From Anaerosomatales bacterium (GTDB lineage: Bacteria > Actinomycetota > Coriobacteriia > Anaerosomatales > SLCP01): 64,000 nucleotides of DNA. The position numbers and the translations under genes are program-made. Of this stretch, positions 54,712 to 64,000 are shown piece by piece; within the stretch, counting starts at the first letter, position 1, and every line of letters begins with the position of its first letter. The stretch lies in the NCBI GenBank assembly GCA_029210645.1, contig JARGFT010000011.1, forward strand, positions 9,519 through 73,518, read 5' to 3'. Below the pieces are notes generated by a model, which saw only the letters and a program-made list of their open reading frames with translations, had not been told where the DNA came from and ran no database searches.

Positions 54712-55047
54712 CTAGAACTCCCGCGCCTCCGCGGCGTCGGGGAATATAGCGAACACCTTGTCCAGACCTGTTATGCGGAATATCTTCAGGATGTTCTCAC
54801 GCGTGCACACGAGACGGATGGCCCCGTCGCGCTCATTTGCACGTCGCAAGCCGCCGACGAGCACGCCGAGGCCGGAGCTGTCGATGAAGCCGACGCCTTC
54901 GAGATCGACGATGATACGGGAGCACCCCGATTCGATCTGATCGATGAGAGTCTCCTTGAGCCGGGGAGCGGTGTAGACGTCGACCTCACCCTCGAGCGAC
55001 ATCGTGCACACCCCGTCCGCCTGCACCGCGGTGATCTCAAGTTCCAT
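54712..55047 (-). CDS. STAS-domain anti-sigma-factor antagonist (SpoIIAA/RsbV-like)
   Basis: Start trimmed to MELEITAVQADG... Retains the phosphorylatable-Ser motif ...FIDSSGLGVL... Confidence 0.85.
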   Translation of the reverse strand: MELEITAVQADGVCTMSLEGEVDVYTAPRLKETLIDQIESGCSRIIVDLEGVGFIDSSGLGVLVGGLRRANERDGAIRLVCTRENILKIFRITGLDKVFAIFPDAAEAREF

Positions 55048-55088
55048 GGCGCGCTTCGCTCCCTCTCGTTGCCGGAATAGCCTGAAAG

Positions 55089-55118
55089 ATTGTACCGTGC
55101 TTCCACCCCCCGTACCAA
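55089..55118 (-). promoter_or_regulatory. Candidate promoter for the minus-strand STAS gene (TTGGTA-N18-TACAAT)
   Basis: Read in the divergent spacer. The -10 is at 55094..55089 and the -35 at 55118..55113. A GAGGGAG SD lies further downstream. Confidence 0.35.
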
Positions 55119-55242
55119 CCAGACCCGTTGCCGGACCGGTGCGGTCGGGCGCAGGGCAGGGCATCTGCTCGGACGTTACTCGGTATCGGTCGGAGGAATA
55201 CGGGTACCATTGTGGTGAATCCGCCCGAAAGAAAGGATCCCG

Positions 55243-55593
55243 ATGTCGCTCACGATAGACCTCACACAGGAGCCCACCTACTGGCTCCTGAAACTCGCGG
55301 GGGATCTGGACTACGGTGAGTGCGCTGCGTTCCGGGTCAACATCGACCGGATCCTGAAGAACTCGCCACCTGCGGCGATCGTCGATCTATCGAACCTCGA
55401 GTATCTGGACAGCTCCGGTCTCGGGCTGCTCTTGAGCCTGTCCAAGGAGTTCGGCGCCCAGGGAGGCCGTCTCGTGCTGGTCACCAACGAAACGGTCGAC
55501 AACATCCTGTCGCTGACCCGGCTGAACGGTATCTTCTCCACCGCATCGTCGATGGAGGATGCGCTGGCAACCGTCTCGGAGCAGCCGCTTTAG
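55243..55593 (+). CDS. STAS-domain anti-sigma-factor antagonist (SpoIIAA/RsbV-like)
   Basis: 116 aa with ...YLDSSGLGLLLS... Divergent from the other STAS gene. Confidence 0.85.
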   Translation: MSLTIDLTQEPTYWLLKLAGDLDYGECAAFRVNIDRILKNSPPAAIVDLSNLEYLDSSGLGLLLSLSKEFGAQGGRLVLVTNETVDNILSLTRLNGIFSTASSMEDALATVSEQPL

Positions 55594-57226: not shown

Positions 57227-58579
57227 CTAGACGATCCTCAACTTGATGCGCATCTCCTCGGCCCGAGCCTGGATGCGGTCGATGTCGAGCAGGCTCCAAC
57301 GGCCCGAATCGTAGAGCACCTGACCTGCGACCATGGTGAACATCACGTTCTCCTGATTCGCGGTATGCACGAGCGTGCTGTACGGGTAAAGCGTCGGGAT
57401 CTGGTGGCTGTGCGAGATGTCGACGGCGATGATGTCCGCCTGCTTGCCCGGTTCCAGCGAACCCACCCGATCGTCGAGGCCAAGGGCTCGTGCGGCGTCG
57501 AGGGTTCCCATCTTGATGAACTGGCGGGCGATCAAGTGTGACTCGTAGCCAGAGAGTGCGCGCTGGATGAGCAGGCCTATCCGCATCTCATCGAACATGT
57601 CCAGCGTGTTGTTCGATGCGGGCGAGTCGGTCCCGATCCCCACCTCTATCCCCCGCTCGAGGAAGCTGCCGAGCGGGGCGACACCCATGCCGAGCTTGGC
57701 GTTGCAGCGCGGGCAGTACGCCACGGCCACCTCGCGACCGGCGAGGATCTCCATGTCGGCGTCGTCGACCTGCGTGCAGTGCACCGCGAGCATCCGTGGG
57801 ACCTCGAAGAGCCCCCACTGGTCGATGTAGCGCACGGGGCTCACGCCGGTGGGCAGCCACCCGAGATCGACACCGGTGAATGTGTCCCGGTAATCCACCG
57901 CAAGACGGGAGCTGCCGTACTTCACGAAGTCGTACTCGTCCTTCGAGCCTGCCACGTGCATCGCGACCGGCAGGTCCTCGGCGATCGCCTTCTCGGCGAC
58001 CTGACGGTAGACCTCGGGGTGACAGCTGTACGCCGCGTGCGGCGCGATCCCAATGGTCAGACGCGACGGGTCCCCGTACTCGCGCCATGCCGCGATGTCC
58101 TCGGCTGCGCGGGCCATCAGCCCCGCTACCTGTCGCTTTTCCATCGTGGAGACTTCCCGGTACGCGACCGCGCGAAGGCCGGACCCCGCCGCCGCGCGCG
58201 CCGATGCGCCCGTCTCGGTGATGTCGGCGACCGTCGTGATGCCGGACTGCAGGGCCTCGGCGGCGCCGAGCCGGGCGGCGTCCTCCCAGTCCTCGTCATC
58301 GAGGTACTGTTCCTTCTCGAGCAGCTGGAGTTTCCACTGCGAGTAGGGCAGGTCGTCGACGAGTCCGCGCATCGCCGAGTACTCGAGGTGGGTGTGCAGG
58401 TCGACGAAGCCGGGCATGAGCACGGCAAGGCCGAAGTCGCGGATCTCCTCGTCGGGATGGGCCGCTTTGAGCTTCTCGAGCTCCCCGATCTCCACGATGT
58501 GGTCGCCGTGCACGAGCACGGCGCCATCGACGATGTGCGGCGCGGCTATCGGAAGGACGTACCGGGCGGCGAGTAGCAT
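57227..58579 (-). CDS. Amidohydrolase (COG0402-type: MTA/SAH, guanine or aminofutalosine deaminase-like)
   Basis: Start trimmed to MLLAARYVLPIA... (ATG 58579). Metal motifs ...GFVDLHTHLEYS..., ...VAMHVAGS... and ...IGTDSPASN... Confidence 0.85.
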   Translation of the reverse strand: MLLAARYVLPIAAPHIVDGAVLVHGDHIVEIGELEKLKAAHPDEEIRDFGLAVLMPGFVDLHTHLEYSAMRGLVDDLPYSQWKLQLLEKEQYLDDEDWEDAARLGAAEALQSGITTVADITETGASARAAAGSGLRAVAYREVSTMEKRQVAGLMARAAEDIAAWREYGDPSRLTIGIAPHAAYSCHPEVYRQVAEKAIAEDLPVAMHVAGSKDEYDFVKYGSSRLAVDYRDTFTGVDLGWLPTGVSPVRYIDQWGLFEVPRMLAVHCTQVDDADMEILAGREVAVAYCPRCNAKLGMGVAPLGSFLERGIEVGIGTDSPASNNTLDMFDEMRIGLLIQRALSGYESHLIARQFIKMGTLDAARALGLDDRVGSLEPGKQADIIAVDISHSHQIPTLYPYSTLVHTANQENVMFTMVAGQVLYDSGRWSLLDIDRIQARAEEMRIKLRIV

Positions 58580-58632
58580 GCACGTCTCCTCGGAGTCGGT
58601 GTGTCGCCATTCTAGCAGCACGGAGACGCTCT

Positions 58633-58746
58633 GGGAGCGACGGGGAGGGTTGCCCGGCGAGTTCTGCAGCGCGGAGGGAGGCGCTTCGCGCCGAGGGCCC
58701 CTCCGCGCGAAGCTGTCTGAGTCGGGGAACCCTCCCCGTCGCTCCC
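58633..58746. repeat. 114-nt nested inverted repeat (long GC-rich hairpin) between menG/ubiE and the amidohydrolase gene
   Basis: Outer arms are a perfect 19 bp (58633..58651 GGGAGCGACGGGGAGGGTT pairing with 58728..58746). Inner arms are a perfect 10 bp (58669..58678 with 58699..58708). The apical hairpin GGCGC-TTC-GCGCC lies at 58680..58692. Confidence 0.8.
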
Positions 58747-58752
58747 CCGCCC

Positions 58753-59499
58753 CTACTTCACGGCGGTGTGGATGGCGACGATGCCGCCGGTGCGGTCCTC
58801 CCAGGAGATCGCGGTGAAGCCCGCGGCCCGCAACTCGGCCGCAAGCTGGGCCTGCGGCGGGAAGGAGCGGATCGAGTCGTTGAGGTAGACGAACGAGGCG
58901 CGGTCGCGCGTGAGCAGTCCGCCGATCGCCGGGATGACGACACGCAGGTAGAGGTGGTAGAACCAACGCCACGGCGCAAAGGAAGGACGCGAGAACTCGA
59001 GGATGACGTAGCGCCCGCCCGGTTTGAGGACCCGCAGGACCTCGGAGAAGTTGGCTGCGCGGTCGGGCAGGTTGCGCACCCCGAAGGCCACTGTCGCTAC
59101 GTCGAACGAGGAGTCCGGGAAGGGCAGGTCCTGGGCGTCTGCGACGGAGAAGGACACCTTGGTGCGGCCCGAGAAGCCACGCCCCTTCTGCTCGGCGACC
59201 GCAAGCATCTCGGGTACGAAGTCGGTGCCGACGACCTCGGCCGGCCTGCCCTGCTTCGCGAGGGCAAGCGAGAGGTCACCGGTGCCGGCGCACAGGTCGA
59301 GCACCCGGCTCGTGGTCTTGAGGTTTGCCGCCTGCACCGCAGCGCGCCGCCAGGACCGGTCGATGCCGAAGCTCGAGAGGATGTTGAACAGGTCGTAGCG
59401 GTCCGCGATCAGCGAGAAGATGCCATGCACGCGCTCGGCGGTCGGCTCGCCCGGCGCTGGAGCGCCGGGCGCATCTCGTTCGTCGTTCACGTCGGGCAT
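58753..59499 (-). CDS. menG: Demethylmenaquinone/ubiquinone C-methyltransferase (UbiE/MenG family)
   Basis: ...YDLFNILSSFGIDRSWRR..., SAM motif ...VLDLCAGTGDL... and ...LKPGGRYVILEFS... The ATG shares 1 nt with the radical-SAM gene stop. Confidence 0.88.
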   Translation of the reverse strand: MPDVNDERDAPGAPAPGEPTAERVHGIFSLIADRYDLFNILSSFGIDRSWRRAAVQAANLKTTSRVLDLCAGTGDLSLALAKQGRPAEVVGTDFVPEMLAVAEQKGRGFSGRTKVSFSVADAQDLPFPDSSFDVATVAFGVRNLPDRAANFSEVLRVLKPGGRYVILEFSRPSFAPWRWFYHLYLRVVIPAIGGLLTRDRASFVYLNDSIRSFPPQAQLAAELRAAGFTAISWEDRTGGIVAIHTAVK

Positions 59500-61289
59500 C
59501 AGGCCTCCGGGGGTTCGCACACGGGCTGTGGACGGGGCGCGGGGCGCCTCCGGGACCCGAACAGGTTAGCTAGGTTCTCCCGCAGCCACAACATGAAGAC
59601 GTGGCGAACGTTACGGAGGCCCACCGAACGAGGCCAGTTCAGCTCGGACTTCTCGCAGACCGTCGACTCGCTCAGGCGATCGATCTCCTCCTTGAGAGCA
59701 TCGAGTTCGCGCCCGCGGACAGCAGGGTCCCGCTCGCCCATCACCTCATCGATGCGCGCCATGGCCTCACGAGCCTGAAGAATGCGGTCCTCGGTGCACG
59801 CCACGACGTCCGGCTCGATGGTGCCCAGGCGCCCCTTGAGGCGGTTCAGGCGCAGGCCCACCTCGTACATCGTGTCGACCATCTCGTCTTTGGGAAGCGA
59901 GTGGCTCTCGTAGTTCATGATGTACTTCCAGGAGGGCTGCACGAGCAGCTGGCGGTGCTCCTCGAGCGTGTCGGCCAGCCGCGTGTAGCCGTACTTCTCG
60001 GGATTGTCGTAGACCATCGAGCCGGGATCGAGGAACGGCGCCATGGGCGACGAGAAGCACAGCAGCCGCTTATCGTTGCCCACCTTCTCGTAGAGCGACT
60101 CGATGTAGGCCGGCGTCTCGAGCACGGAAGCGGCGGTCTGGGTCGGGATGCCGGTCATCATGTAGAGGTCGAAGCGCGAACAGCCGTTGCGCAGCGCCGC
60201 GGCGATCGACTCCTCTACCTGCGCGGTGGTGTAGTGGTGCTTGCCGAAGGCCGCGCGCACATCGTCGTCGTGCGTCTCGATGCTGATCTCGACCGAGTAG
60301 TCGTCGAGGTGCTCGTTGAGGAACCAGTAGAACTCCTCGGCGGGCGGCTTGAAGAACTCGAACCCGATCGGATTGCGCAGGTTGATCTTAGAGAGCCCGC
60401 GTATGAATGCGGCGGTGTAGTCGCGCCCGGCCTGCAGGAAGTCGTTGAGCACGAAGACCGGCCCCGGGATGTACTTCTGGAAGTGTTCGATATCGCGGAC
60501 CAGCAGCTCCGGATCGCGGAACGCCACGCGGTCGCGGCCGTAGTGGTTTCTGAACGCGTATGCCGAGCCGCCGCACGTCACGCAGTTGTGCGTGCAACCC
60601 CGGCAGGTGAGCGAGGCACACACCGGGTACTGCAGCCAGTCCTTGAAGGGCACAGAGCCCATCATGTCCCGGTAGCGGATGACCGACTTCATGCTGTAGG
60701 AGTAGTCGAGCGAGATGTCGTTCATGTCGCCCGGGACCCACTCGAACGGCGTCGAGTGCACAGACCCGTCGCGCGTGGTGTAGGTCAGGTTCGGGATGTC
60801 ATCGACCCGTCCCTTCCCCTTGAGCGCGTAGAGCAGGCGCGTCATCGGCTCCTCGGTCGAATCGCCGCGCACCACGTAGTCCACGCTCGGGTAGCTCGCG
60901 AGCTCCTCGTGGAAGAAGCTGGCCGAGAGGCCGCCGAAGATCACCGGCGTGTCCGGATGGTACTTCTTGCAGATCTTCGAGATCTCGACCGAGCCGTGGG
61001 CGTGTGGCAGCCAGTGCAGGTCGATGCCGAATGCGACCGGGTTCATCTCCCGGATCGCCCGCTCGACGTCGAAACCGGGCTTGTTGAGCATGAGGACGGC
61101 CAGGTTCACGATGCGGACCTTCAGCCCGTGGCGCTCCATGTACTCGGCCATGGTCGTGAAACCGAGGGGGTACATCTCGAAGACAGGGGTCGAGGGCACC
61201 ATGTCGGACACCGGTCCGAACATGATGGAGCGCTCTCTGAAGTCATACACGCTGGGAGCGTGGAGCAACACGAGGTCGACTCGCGACAT
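59499..61289 (-). CDS. B12-binding-domain / radical SAM protein (~596 aa)
   Basis: Start trimmed to MSRVDLVLLHAPSVYDF... An N-terminal Rossmann-like cobalamin-binding domain is followed by the radical SAM cluster motif CTHNCVTC (CxxxCxxC). Confidence 0.82.
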   Translation of the reverse strand: MSRVDLVLLHAPSVYDFRERSIMFGPVSDMVPSTPVFEMYPLGFTTMAEYMERHGLKVRIVNLAVLMLNKPGFDVERAIREMNPVAFGIDLHWLPHAHGSVEISKICKKYHPDTPVIFGGLSASFFHEELASYPSVDYVVRGDSTEEPMTRLLYALKGKGRVDDIPNLTYTTRDGSVHSTPFEWVPGDMNDISLDYSYSMKSVIRYRDMMGSVPFKDWLQYPVCASLTCRGCTHNCVTCGGSAYAFRNHYGRDRVAFRDPELLVRDIEHFQKYIPGPVFVLNDFLQAGRDYTAAFIRGLSKINLRNPIGFEFFKPPAEEFYWFLNEHLDDYSVEISIETHDDDVRAAFGKHHYTTAQVEESIAAALRNGCSRFDLYMMTGIPTQTAASVLETPAYIESLYEKVGNDKRLLCFSSPMAPFLDPGSMVYDNPEKYGYTRLADTLEEHRQLLVQPSWKYIMNYESHSLPKDEMVDTMYEVGLRLNRLKGRLGTIEPDVVACTEDRILQAREAMARIDEVMGERDPAVRGRELDALKEEIDRLSESTVCEKSELNWPRSVGLRNVRHVFMLWLRENLANLFGSRRRPAPRPQPVCEPPEA

Positions 61290-61365
61290 GAAGTCAGGCC
61301 CTTCTGTCTGCAGCGGCCCTACGGCGGCCCCCCGGCAGGGCAACGGCCGAGGCCGAACGGCCGGA

Positions 61366-61409: not shown

Positions 61410-62618
61410 CTACTGGGAGACGGATCCCCTCACGTGGCACTCGGCGCAGTACGTCGGGTTGTGGCAGTCGAAGCACTGCTGTGCTCCGCCCTCGCGCACC
61501 GGCTCCATGTGCTGCGGGATCCACGCGCGGTTCGGATCGGCGCCCTCGTGGTGGCAGTCGTTGCAGAAGTCCGATCCCGGCGCACTCGCATGGCAGTTCT
61601 CGCAGACCTCGGGACGGGTCCGTCCGTCCTCGCCATGCTCCTTGGCAAAGCCCTCGGGGTGCGGCATCTGCACGCCGTGGCAACCGTCGCAGAACACGCG
61701 CTCGTTGTGGCAGGTCTGGCAGTAGCCGACCGCCGCCACCGGCGGGAGATGCTGGAGCTGCTCGTACATCGGCGCGTCGGTGTGCGGCTCTTCGAGATCG
61801 GCGCGGGCCGCTGTATAGGCGGCGAAGTCCTCGTTGGCCATCGCCGCGTGGCCACCGCTCTCGCCGTACGGCTCGTAGAAGCCCGGTTCGCTGTGGTTCG
61901 CCGGCATGAGCTCGAAGTCAGGCGTGTGGCATGCCTCGCACTCGGCGGGGGCCACGATCCCGCTCACGGACTCGCCGCTCGTGGTGTGGCACCGGTAGCA
62001 GGCCGCCATGAGCATGAAGTCCTCGTGCGGCTGGTTGGGCTCGCCGGTGCCCGGGTCGGTGAGCGTGAGCTCGAAGTCCTCGACGTGCGCGGTGCGGTTG
62101 TGGCACACCGTGCAGTGGATCTCGGCCTCATCGTGGACGGCGTGGTCGATGACGATCCCCGGGCTGGGGGTCACGGTGCGGTTCTCGAGCCAGTGGCACT
62201 GGTTGCACTGCTCCGGACCCATGTACTTCTGGCTGAGCGCGAGATGAGAGCCGTGATTGAGGGGCAGTTCGAACTTGTTGGTGGCCGTGAGATACAGCTC
62301 GCCGAGGGCCTCGGCCTTGTGCAGCAGGAAGGTGACCGGATCGGCGTTCACCGGCATGTGGCACGCCATGCACGACACTTCGGAGTGCGGCGAGCGGTCG
62401 TAGGCGATGATCGTGTCGTCCTGCACCTTGTGACACACGTTGGCGCAGAACCAGTACGTCGAGGTAACGCCGAGTGCGACGACAACGAATGCCGCCAGAC
62501 CGAGGACGACCGCACCTGTCCAGATGAGATAGCGGGGACGCCGCATCGGGTCGGCGTAACCGGAGAAGAACGTCTTCAGCTTCGGCATGCGCTCCTGTCC
62601 TGTCTCACGAGGCTCCAT
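61410..62618 (-). CDS. Membrane-anchored dodecahaem c-type cytochrome with NapC/NirT (NrfH/CymA)-like N-terminal module
   Basis: 402 aa. TM anchor ...YLIWTGAVVLGLAAFVVVALGV, then FCANVCH...SPHSEVSCMACHMP (NapC/NirT pattern). I counted 12 CxxCH motifs in total. Confidence 0.85.
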   Translation of the reverse strand: MEPRETGQERMPKLKTFFSGYADPMRRPRYLIWTGAVVLGLAAFVVVALGVTSTYWFCANVCHKVQDDTIIAYDRSPHSEVSCMACHMPVNADPVTFLLHKAEALGELYLTATNKFELPLNHGSHLALSQKYMGPEQCNQCHWLENRTVTPSPGIVIDHAVHDEAEIHCTVCHNRTAHVEDFELTLTDPGTGEPNQPHEDFMLMAACYRCHTTSGESVSGIVAPAECEACHTPDFELMPANHSEPGFYEPYGESGGHAAMANEDFAAYTAARADLEEPHTDAPMYEQLQHLPPVAAVGYCQTCHNERVFCDGCHGVQMPHPEGFAKEHGEDGRTRPEVCENCHASAPGSDFCNDCHHEGADPNRAWIPQHMEPVREGGAQQCFDCHNPTYCAECHVRGSVSQ

Positions 62619-62657: not shown

Positions 62658-64000
62658 CTACGTCCCACTCGAAACCGTGAAGAAGACCGTCTTTGGCGGG
62701 AACTCGACGTTGCCGGACCAGTCCTCGGACCAGAACTCGAGGTTGTAGGTCTCCATCCCACTCACTGGCGGCGGCACTTCGATTACCGTTCCGTACCGGA
62801 GAGCGCCACCGTTCAGGCGGTAGTACGTGTACCTGGATCCGAGATAACCGTCGTCGGTCGGACCCAGAACCACAGTCGCCGTAGCCTCATACGAGCTACG
62901 AACGTTCGACGTCGTGACCGGCGCGAGTGTGTCCGGGACGACCGTGAACGTCGCCGTCCTCGACGGCGATTCGTAGACACCCGATAGGCTCTCTGACCAG
63001 AACTCGAGCGAGTGTACGCCTGGCTCACTGACAAAGACTCCGGGTCCGGCCATGAGCCGGCCCCCATCCAAACGGCGATACGTCCGGCCATCCGCGGCTT
63101 CGCCATCCACGGTGATGGCAAACGAGATGTATGCGGGGCCGACGTAGGATACCTGCACATCGGCGACGGTGACCGGGGGGGTCGCCTCTACAGATGAGAA
63201 CCTGCTCGCCAGGGCGGTGGTAGCCGCCGGCACTACATGGCAGTTGAGACAGAAGCCGGGATCCAACAGAGCTCCGACGCCGGCCGTATGGCAACTGTCA
63301 CAGTAATCCCGTGCGAGCGGGTTTGATGCGTAGGGGTCATGACTCACGAAGGCATCACCGTGATACGCGACATGACAGCCGCTCTGTTGGCAGCCCTTGT
63401 CCGGCTCATACGTGTCCCAGGTAGCCGGGTGACACGTCAGACACTCCGAACCGTGAGCGGTCACCAGGTCGTCCGCGTGACAGCCTATCCCGCAGTCGAC
63501 CGTATCGACGAGCCAGGCAGTTCGTGGCCGCCCAAGGTGACTATCCGTGAAGAAGTCCATGGTGTCCGGCACAAGCGTAAGCGTATGATCCACCTCGGCG
63601 TGCGGATCGGTGCCGTGACAAGACCCGCACTCTGCCGTGCGGGGCTCACCCGGAAGGTGGCACGCCTCACAGCCCGTGACGGTGCCGGCGTGGATGTCGA
63701 TGGGGTCGCCTGCGTCGTGACACCCGAGGCACTCATCGAACCCTTCAGGCAGCTCGTGCAGGAGGGAGTGACAGTTCAGGCAGAGCGCATGCCCTGCCGT
63801 AACGGTTACCTCGTGCGAAGACTCGACCGGTCGCACGAGAAAGCGCTCGGCACTGCTCTCGTGAGGAAACACGTGGAATTCCGGGTTGCCGGTGGACTCC
63901 GCGCTGACCGGGGACGAGTACACGCTCACGGCGAATGTCTGTTCCGCGCCGAGCATAGGGTTGGTGCCCCTCTCGGAGGGTCCGATATCGCGGGCGTCCT
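62658..64000 (-). CDS. Multihaem c-type cytochrome with two C-terminal Ig-like/beta-sandwich repeats; 5' end probably outside window
   Basis: 7 CxxCH motifs plus CGIGCH (CX3CH) and CQQSGCH (CX4CH). The C-terminal ~170 aa holds two similar modules (...YRRLDGG...HSLEFWSES... and ...YYRLNGG...YNLEFWSEDWSGNVE...). The frame stays open upstream of Met 63956 to the window edge, and no signal peptide is visible. Confidence 0.8.
   Translation of the reverse strand, partial: DARDIGPSERGTNPMLGAEQTFAVSVYSSPVSAESTGNPEFHVFPHESSAERFLVRPVESSHEVTVTAGHALCLNCHSLLHELPEGFDECLGCHDAGDPIDIHAGTVTGCEACHLPGEPRTAECGSCHGTDPHAEVDHTLTLVPDTMDFFTDSHLGRPRTAWLVDTVDCGIGCHADDLVTAHGSECLTCHPATWDTYEPDKGCQQSGCHVAYHGDAFVSHDPYASNPLARDYCDSCHTAGVGALLDPGFCLNCHVVPAATTALASRFSSVEATPPVTVADVQVSYVGPAYISFAITVDGEAADGRTYRRLDGGRLMAGPGVFVSEPGVHSLEFWSESLSGVYESPSRTATFTVVPDTLAPVTTSNVRSSYEATATVVLGPTDDGYLGSRYTYYRLNGGALRYGTVIEVPPPVSGMETYNLEFWSEDWSGNVEFPPKTVFFTVSSGT

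Follow-up and report, generated by a model that had tools for sequence, protein, structure and literature searches.

The locus examined here raises the question of what a NapC/NirT-type cytochrome does when it carries 12 heme motifs in place of the canonical 4. The gene lies on the minus strand at 61410..62618 of a 64,000-nucleotide stretch of DNA from an Anaerosomatales bacterium (assembly GCA_029210645.1, contig JARGFT010000011.1, positions 9,519 to 73,518), referred to below as the window, in whose coordinates all features are given. We consider it probable that its product is a quinol:cytochrome oxidoreductase akin to ImcH and CymA, with the heme extension built in, acting as part of an extracellular electron transfer (EET) conduit in monoderm Anaerosomatales. 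The family to which it belongs most likely serves to transfer respiratory electrons between the cell exterior and the membrane.

A scan of the window for open reading frames (ORFs) returned an intact, uninterrupted frame of 402 codons, with its stop at 61410-61412, at exactly the position where the initial annotation had placed a 402-residue protein with 12 heme motifs; the strand, which that annotation had not stated, is minus. The translation contains 24 cysteines and 12 heme c motifs (residues 58, 83, 138, 169, 207, 227, 300, 310, 339, 352, 382, and 391 in 402 numbering), at which heme would be attached. Eleven of these are CXXCH and one, CANVCH, is CX3CH, so that the earlier reading of the first motif as FCxxCH had to be corrected. 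The N-terminal transmembrane (TM) helix, the S-x-H histidine, and CMACH-x-P were all present as described, and the estimated one heme per 30 residues agrees well with the measured density of about 1 per 29 extracytoplasmic residues. Translation probably starts at M11 (ATG 62586-62588) to give a product of 392 amino acids, because an AGGAG Shine-Dalgarno sequence (62592..62596) lies 3 nt 5′ of that codon and both the homologs and the NCBI gene call begin there. A record from an Anaerosomatales metagenome-assembled genome (MAG), named NapC/NirT family cytochrome c [Anaerosomatales bacterium] (P0001), is 100% identical to the window protein, and the gene is called at 392 amino acids on contig JAVVDZ010000017.1 (GCA_032251415.1), which matches the window at 99.97% identity across the shared 12.6 kb.

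The initial annotation had also named an artifact as a way in which its reading could fail, namely, a frameshift or misassembly joining two ORFs, to which chance clustering of CXXCH in a GC-rich frame may be added. The window has a GC content of 66.8% and many spurious long ORFs in other frames, and beyond this we found no support for such an origin. Over 5000 shuffles of the protein's own composition, chance supplied 0.1 CXXCH motifs on average and never more than 3, against the 11 observed, and there was no GC discontinuity across the gene. Dozens of independent assemblies, contributed by many studies, show this colinear architecture again at 44-93% identity, and none of the 12 motifs varies among 41 aligned homologs of similar length. 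We conclude that the gene is real and that the artifact reading is refuted, its residual probability being negligible. A compositional anomaly or horizontal island was rejected on the same unbroken composition, and a promoter and terminator scan yielded nothing exceeding shuffle expectation.

The N-terminal part of the protein is a quinol dehydrogenase core by homology. Pfam PF03264 (NapC/NirT) matched residues 35-178 (62085..62516, minus strand) with 47.6 bits (E 2e-12; gathering cutoff, 24.1), and the same model gave 56 bits in a long-form homolog (L059, discussed below). In searches with the single sequence and two family profiles, the best relative of solved structure was the quinol dehydrogenase NrfH (2J7A, chain 2j7a_C), and the alignment covers the TM helix as well as four motifs that are colinear with NrfH hemes 1 to 4: CANVCH (62430-62447), located six residues after the TM helix, CMACH (62358-62372), CNQCH (62193-62207), and CTVCH (62100-62114), all on the minus strand. 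Since the alignment runs through these four motifs, hemes 1 to 4 correspond to the NapC/NirT core and hemes 5 to 12 constitute the extension. The mapping of the 12 sites that had been proposed as a check is thereby provided, and the concern that the NapC/NirT similarity might be spurious does not hold. A hydropathy scan found only one strongly hydrophobic segment, at residues ~30-52. It corresponds to the single N-terminal TM helix, YLIWTGAVVLGLAAFVVVALGVT (62463..62531, minus strand), which is also predicted by AlphaFold2 (helix 17-42; per-residue model confidence [pLDDT], 89-95) and aligned with the TM helix of NrfH. A basic segment, RRPR, precedes this helix and therefore implies an N-in/C-out topology.

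Residue and motif counts for the family were taken from the best 120 of 571 homologs returned by a word-indexed search, which are 43-100% identical to the window protein. The first motif is CX3CH (FCxxxCH) in all 120, which identifies it as a family signature and not a sequence error. It is followed by an invariant K-V-Q-D-D in place of the canonical x-M, with Q at H+3 and D at H+5 in 120/120 homologs each, and the column aligned to the proximal Met49 of NrfH likewise holds Gln in every one. Farther along, Lys101 (62316-62318) and Glu107 (62298-62300; both in 402 numbering) align with NrfH Lys82 and Asp89; Lys is found in 120/120 and Glu in 107/120 homologs, and the W-F-C beside the membrane is invariant or nearly so. 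From this alignment we infer a quinol site that includes Lys101 and Glu107 (62298..62318, minus strand). The histidine that follows heme 4 in NrfH-type proteins is shared, and an alignment of the 41 short forms revealed eleven invariant histidines outside the motifs together with invariant Lys91, Gln56, and Met192/194 (392 numbering). These histidines and the conserved methionines would be available as distal heme ligands.

A CX3CH motif beside a TM domain is the hallmark of Geobacter ImcH, an inner-membrane quinol oxidase used for high-potential extracellular acceptors, whose first hemes resemble NapC/NirT and whose actinobacterial and Chloroflexi homologs have one TM helix (PMC6295460). In ImcH, heme 1 is coordinated by His137/Gln179, and K173 occupies the position of NrfH K82 (bioRxiv 10.1101/2023.05.03.539133). 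Among distant representatives of the present family, heme 1 reads CxxCHxM in P0170, P0193, and P0202, all three of which have 12 CXXCH, and CxxxCHxM in P0215, P0194, and P0196; all of these intermediates continue into the same type of module. An atypical first motif, CX3CH with no Met at +2, could also be taken to mean that the protein makes no contact with quinol and is a membrane-tethered carrier fed by another membrane complex, its NapC/NirT-like head being a structural remnant. The long forms described below, which stand alone with no partner cytochromes, are compatible with such a carrier, and the authors of the study on Coriobacteriaceae sp. EMTCatB1 pictured connections with membrane hydrogenase and formate dehydrogenase (PMC7943316). 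However, the Lys, the acidic residue, and W-F-C have been retained across homologs as divergent as 43% identity, which would be difficult to account for if the site had no function, and ImcH, with the same CX3CH, does react with menadiol (bioRxiv 10.1101/2023.05.03.539133). We regard a carrier that bypasses quinol as very unlikely.

Beyond the core, hemes 5 (CYRCH) and 6 (CEACH) form a dihaem extension (61926..62000, minus strand) of weakly c7-like character: the region gave a profile match to the c7-like domain 8k9e_A, and in a long-form homolog the corresponding region scored 48 bits with Pfam Cytochrome_C7. A linker (61722..61925, minus strand) with an invariant histidine, His257 (H247 in 392 numbering), then leads to heme 7. 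It ranges from 36 to 101 residues in short forms and from 57 to 102 in long forms, with a net charge of −0.14 per residue. Because a linker this variable and acidic separates hemes 6 and 7, the last six hemes may form a module held on a tether and may not extend the chain rigidly. These hemes, 7 to 12, make up the C-terminal hexaheme module (61413..61721, minus strand), which consists of three CXXCH-x(4-8)-CXXCH pairs with the conserved elements MPHP, CHH, and W-x3-H; the paired arrangement was borderline on Pfam PF09699. In a subgroup of short forms of ~360 amino acids (P0081, P0106, P0107, and L003:8001-9089), most of the acidic linker is gone and the heme-5 motif is expanded to C-Y-R-A-E-G-C-H, leaving 10 or 11 standard CXXCH/CX3CH motifs; either this heme has been lost or the expanded motif may act as a CX5CH site of atypical form. 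Two further 12-heme proteins (P0121 and P0123, 587-593 amino acids) carry a low-complexity, Pro/Glu/Ala-rich cytoplasmic extension of ~200-250 residues ahead of the TM helix.

The search for homologs of the fusion, also suggested in the initial annotation, showed that the module is the unit by which the family varies. Colinear homologs are encoded at no fewer than 567 loci when one genome per GTDB species is considered, almost all in MAGs of uncultured Coriobacteriia/Actinomycetota, and several paralogs per genome are common. An exhaustive HMMER search, run against 1.84 billion cluster representatives, retrieved 1,031 clusters at 50% identity with E ≤ 1e-3, 82 of them at E ≤ 1e-30. The best 120 homologs comprise short forms of ~390 amino acids, with 12 motifs in 42 of 46, and long forms of ~690 amino acids, with 24 motifs in 73 of 74. 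The long forms contain three tandem hexaheme modules that are 37-46% identical to one another, and the single module of the window protein is 39-50% identical to the three modules of one long form, P0008. Correspondingly, a local module hidden Markov model (HMM) matched once in 12-heme ORFs and three times in 24-heme ORFs, and 18-heme forms with two module copies also occur (P0124, P0126, and P0129). As the modules are present one, two, or three times in the 12-, 18-, and 24-heme forms, the family follows the formula 6 + 6n hemes, with n = 1, 2, or 3. It is a large family from uncultured Coriobacteriia.

Paralogous loci with other arrangements reuse the same parts in adjacent pairs of 12-heme and 10-heme genes and in 20-heme proteins (L057:12537-14740, L061, L068, L053, L035, L083, and L018, 3′ of the main cluster; further loci are L027:8818-10602, L076:6539-8281, and L081:10765-12426). 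These paralogs matched both the N-terminal-domain HMM and the module HMM more weakly, and some have a canonical CXXCH as the first motif.

The genes around the cytochrome bear on where its electrons would go. On the contig, a Rex-like regulator, a TPR protein, YceG, a PBP, a 479-residue cytochrome, an NHL protein, and a 753-residue cytochrome precede the window gene in that order. The 479-residue cytochrome has 15 hemes and an N-terminal anchor, and it is MtrA/DmsE-like because it matches paired-CXXCH (×5) together with the DmsE and GSU2203 decaheme families; the NHL protein is a membrane-anchored β-propeller of 368 residues. The gene of the 753-residue cytochrome, which enters the window with its 3′ part (62658..64000, minus strand) and runs off the window end, is complete at L001:7670-9931. 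Its product has 15 heme motifs, of which one is CX3CH (CGIGCH) and another CX4CH (CQQSGCH), a signal peptide, a possible lipobox (LLAC), and a C-terminal weak similarity to an OmpL47-type β-barrel domain. Together they point to a terminal cytochrome exposed at the wall or the surface, which is a likely electron transfer partner of the window protein.

The arrangement is widely kept. Neighborhoods were counted in 80 species-representative loci, among them 52 with a short form and 22 with a long form. A multiheme gene on the same strand ends less than 400 nt upstream in 46 of the 52 short-form loci, having 15 motifs in 35 cases and 7 in 7; its product is usually a 15-heme protein of the MtrA/DmsE-like kind. 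Other genomes retain the Rex, TPR, NHL, and multiheme cytochrome genes, followed by the 12-heme gene, and some then add ResB/CcsA maturation genes, another NHL protein, and a cytochrome of ~1050 residues; within the 64-kb window there are no ResB/CcsA cytochrome maturation genes. The Gram-positive EET clusters described for Dethiobacter combine multiheme cytochromes and a CymA-like protein with a regulator and with proteins of the NHL and TPR types (PMC10376724), and the Rex/TPR/NHL/multiheme context found here has the same composition as these clusters of Gram-positive iron reducers.

This context also bears on the possibility that the protein is a classical NapC/NirT anchor for a dedicated soluble or extracytoplasmic terminal reductase acting on sulfur compounds or nitrite, in which the extra hemes would be a bridge and no EET would take place. 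Such is the established role of NapC, NrfH, TorC, and DorC; Anaerosomatales respire thiosulfate and sulfur (PMC9686372), and EMTCatB1 encodes nitrite reduction (PMC7943316). Yet no catalytic reductase gene, CXXCK pentaheme NrfA, or molybdoenzyme adjoins the cytochrome in any locus examined, and the conserved neighbors are noncatalytic multiheme cytochromes, NHL, and TPR proteins. The NrfH equivalog model fails as well (see below). A reductase anchor is, in our view, distinctly unlikely.

The long forms present a different picture, as no other multiheme ORF was found within ±8 kb in any of their 22 loci (L005, L016, L017, L020, L022, L023, L055, and L059 among them). Read together with the module series, this raises the tentative possibility, which we rather doubt, that the 12-, 18-, and 24-heme forms are a molecular ruler in which the number of hexaheme copies sets how far a single anchored polypeptide reaches across the thick monoderm envelope. 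The 24-heme form would then be a self-sufficient conduit from quinone to surface, which would explain the absence of neighboring cytochrome genes, while the 12-heme form would have to dock on its MtrA-like 15-heme partner. Such a conduit would work both inward and outward, with cathodic uptake by EMTCatB1 as an example. If true, it would mean a porin-free electron route through the Gram-positive wall, unlike the Thermincola relay of separate cytochromes. A fission or fusion relating the 15-heme partner to the additional modules of the 24-heme form was rejected: BLASTP gave only gapped similarity due to CXXCH (27% identity with 36% gaps), the 753-residue neighbor gave the same result, and the 15-heme partner is not a diverged copy of the hexaheme modules. 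A DUF2085 membrane protein is encoded 3′ of the long form in both neighborhoods examined (L005 and L059); on the 5′ side is an MCP-domain protein in L059 and a 384-residue gene product with no Pfam match in L005.

Physiological data are available for relatives. The first cultured Anaerosomatales oxidize H2 or formate and reduce Fe(III), sulfur, or thiosulfate, and they encode 17-18 multiheme cytochromes, among which 'putative quinol oxidizing multihemes', clustered with an MtrA homolog, form the only cytochrome cluster common to both strains (PMC9686372). Khomyakova et al. relate these multihemes to the 20-heme 'putative Q-oxidase' of Carboxydothermus ferrireducens (PMC9686372; PMC7829351). 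Expression data come from EMTCatB1 (BDLO01000001.1), where the gene at L059:7947-10070 encodes a 24-heme homolog 49% identical to the window protein. By gene order it corresponds to locus 1d0898 in the work of Kobayashi et al. 2021 (PMC7943316), as the flanking locus tags match in Pfam content and order (1d0897, MCP; 1d0899, 'predicted membrane protein' [DUF2085]; 1d0904, PNP; 1d0906, Rex; 1d0908, GreA). Transcripts of 1d0898 reached 2347 transcripts per million (TPM) on a closed-circuit, current-consuming biocathode compared with 137 and 130 TPM in controls, an increase of ~17-fold, and the gene was one of two cytochromes specifically induced on the electromethanogenic biocathode and was picked out by the authors as a candidate for direct electron uptake (PMC7943316). 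The NapC/NirT head and the modular structure of 1d0898 are not mentioned in that study.

The biocathode result is the family's only expression record and favors the opposite direction of flow, in which the protein would be a quinone reductase that feeds external electrons from Fe(II), a cathode, or a syntrophic partner into the menaquinone pool. CymA- and CbcL-type proteins, moreover, occur in Fe(III) reducers and Fe(II) oxidizers alike and are regarded as reversible (PMC6295460). Set against this are the reductive metabolism of the cultured Anaerosomatales with H2 or formate (PMC9686372) and the finding of CX3CH-bearing ImcH types only in Fe(III) reducers (PMC6295460). We consider electron uptake as the main function unlikely; direction is not fixable from sequence alone, and both directions may occur.

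Under the oxidoreductase reading that we favor, the single N-terminal helix would anchor the protein in the cytoplasmic membrane, N-in/C-out, with all 12 hemes outside the cell membrane. Heme 1, at the membrane surface beside Lys101 and Glu107, would exchange electrons with the menaquinol pool, and protons would be released outside. Hemes 2 to 6, followed by the hexaheme module, would carry the electrons away from the membrane and pass them on to the MtrA/DmsE-like 15-heme protein and to the 15-heme, surface-type cytochrome with the β-barrel domain, both encoded upstream; the terminal acceptor would presumably lie outside the cell. The NHL β-propeller and the TPR protein would be accessory factors, and the direction of electron flow is possibly reversible. 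The presence of a MenG gene nearby fits a menaquinone-based chain. The earlier proposal of a quinol dehydrogenase fused to its own heme wire is thus supported by homology and context, with both roles stated here as predictions.

Several observations weigh against this reading. The first motif and the residues after it, C-A-N-V-C-H-K-V-Q, are not the canonical CXXCH-x-M, and the quinol chemistry could differ. The NCBIfam NrfH equivalog TIGR03153 gave 34.1 bits against a cutoff of 134.2; with the score this far under the cutoff and no CXXCK pentaheme (nrfA-like) gene in the cytochrome cluster, identity as NrfH itself was rejected. AlphaFold2 models of the full protein (pLDDT, 74; predicted TM-score [pTM], 0.59) and of the N-terminal 239 residues (pLDDT, 67) were of moderate quality only, and neither had a significant Foldseek match in the PDB, so that the fold-level mapping to NrfH depends on sequence and profile alignments; the models were built without heme, and heme-packed proteins are poorly defined that way. 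The variable acidic linker between hemes 6 and 7 speaks against a rigid, continuous 12-heme wire. Among the cultured Anaerosomatales, one strain that has similar cytochrome clusters fails to reduce Fe(III) (PMC9686372), and the expression evidence concerns a long-form paralog class, 49% identical to the window protein, during electron uptake, i.e., in the opposite direction.

The region 3′ of the cytochrome gene was surveyed as well. Directly adjoining it (57227-61343, minus strand) are genes for a B12-binding radical-SAM enzyme (TIGR04190), a genuine MenG/UbiE menaquinone methyltransferase, which is two genes 3′ of the cytochrome, and a TRZ/ATZ-type deaminase. The trio also lies at L001:11300-15362 and L002:9365-13300, and its order is repeated in a second genome. 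The radical-SAM enzyme scored 614 bits on TIGR04190 (Ta0216; cutoff, 500), a family on which we found no literature, and the deaminase fell under the cutoff on both the 5′-deoxyadenosine deaminase and the aminofutalosine deaminase models. The trio may be a menaquinone modification or menaquinone biosynthesis cassette adjoining a quinol-linked cytochrome. A few kilobases 3′ of the cytochrome cluster, two divergent genes for STAS-domain proteins (anti-sigma-factor antagonists) are followed by TatA/TatC and HypA/HypB-type genes (window 54712-55593; L001:16996-19018), a block that is kept in L002.

The link between menaquinone and a mineral, an electrode, or a partner cell is known only in outline in monoderms, especially Actinomycetota, and only from a few Firmicutes. 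The family described here is found in hundreds of Coriobacteriia species from the subsurface, sediments, and bioreactors, and one paralog ranks with the genes most strongly induced by current in an actinobacterium that dominates a biocathode. For the site at the membrane where electrons would enter or leave the actinobacterial EET pathway, the family offers a compact, experimentally accessible candidate with a clearly defined putative quinol site (CX3CH, Lys101, and Glu107). The natural series of wire lengths, with one, two, or three hexaheme modules, and the contrast between partnered and unpartnered forms make hypotheses on chain length and envelope crossing testable, and the heme-1 intermediates link quinol oxidases of the ImcH type with those of the NapC/NirT type.

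Parts of this picture have precedents. The window protein was already automatically annotated as a NapC/NirT family member, and the concept of an enlarged, quinol-oxidizing inner-membrane EET cytochrome is established by ImcH (7 hemes), CbcL (9), ImdcA (10), and the C. ferrireducens protein (20). In the literature searched, we found no description of the 6 + 6n modular series, of a family-wide CX3CH/Lys/Glu heme-1 site in a one-TM, 12- to 24-heme context, or of the contrast between a partnered 12-heme and a stand-alone 24-heme form. NrfH, CymA, and NapC (2J7A/2VR0) are anchored, like the window protein, by one N-terminal TM helix, and they share with it the order and spacing of four motifs, S-x-H, the histidine after heme 4, the equivalent of Lys82, and an acidic residue at the position of Asp89. 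Canonical NapC/NirT members, however, have 4 hemes (5 in TorC/DorC) and CXXCHxM first, in contrast to CX3CH-KVQ and eight more motifs here, and, except for CymA, a dedicated reductase is encoded near them, whereas the window locus has no reductase gene.

GSU1996-type dodecaheme 'nanowire' cytochromes and the MtrA/DmsE decahemes have a similarly very high heme density (~1 per 27-30 residues) and repeated modules, but they are soluble or porin-inserted and lack a quinol-interacting membrane head; the modules of GSU1996-type proteins and MtrA are c7-type trihemes or MtrA-type pentahemes, unlike the CXXCH-pair/MPHP hexaheme unit. The ImdcA proteins of Thermincola (TherJR_1117/Tfer_0070; 10 hemes) and the 20-heme 'putative Q-oxidase' of C. 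ferrireducens, likened here by description, are also membrane anchored and from monoderms, and they are proposed to oxidize menaquinol and pass electrons to wall and surface cytochromes. Thermincola ImdcA is a decaheme protein that keeps its N-terminal anchor, has one high-spin heme, and is a proposed menaquinol oxidase (PMC7911101). Both of these proteins, however, are from Firmicutes and have other heme counts, with no 6 + 6n modular series described.

ImcH (GSU3259) of Geobacter sulfurreducens has the same CX3CH heme-1 motif right after its last TM helix, NapC/NirT/NrfH-like first hemes, a lysine equivalent to NrfH K82, and more than 4 hemes, and its genes, like the window gene, usually adjoin other cytochrome genes. 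The distance from the heme-1 histidine to this lysine is 38 residues here and 36 in ImcH (from published residues, with no direct alignment), and a polar residue stands at Lys+6 in both, Glu here and Gln179, facing heme 1, in ImcH. ImcH differs in having 3 TM helices and 7 hemes, compared with 1 TM helix, 12 hemes, and a separate repeated hexaheme module; its homologs have 1-3 TM helices and 6-10 motifs (5-9 CX2CH), and none is reported with 12 or more hemes (PMC6295460). No model named for ImcH in NCBIfam or Pfam matched the window protein. Overall, we file the protein in the NapC/NirT superfamily, where, judged by published description, ImcH appears to be its closest counterpart in character.

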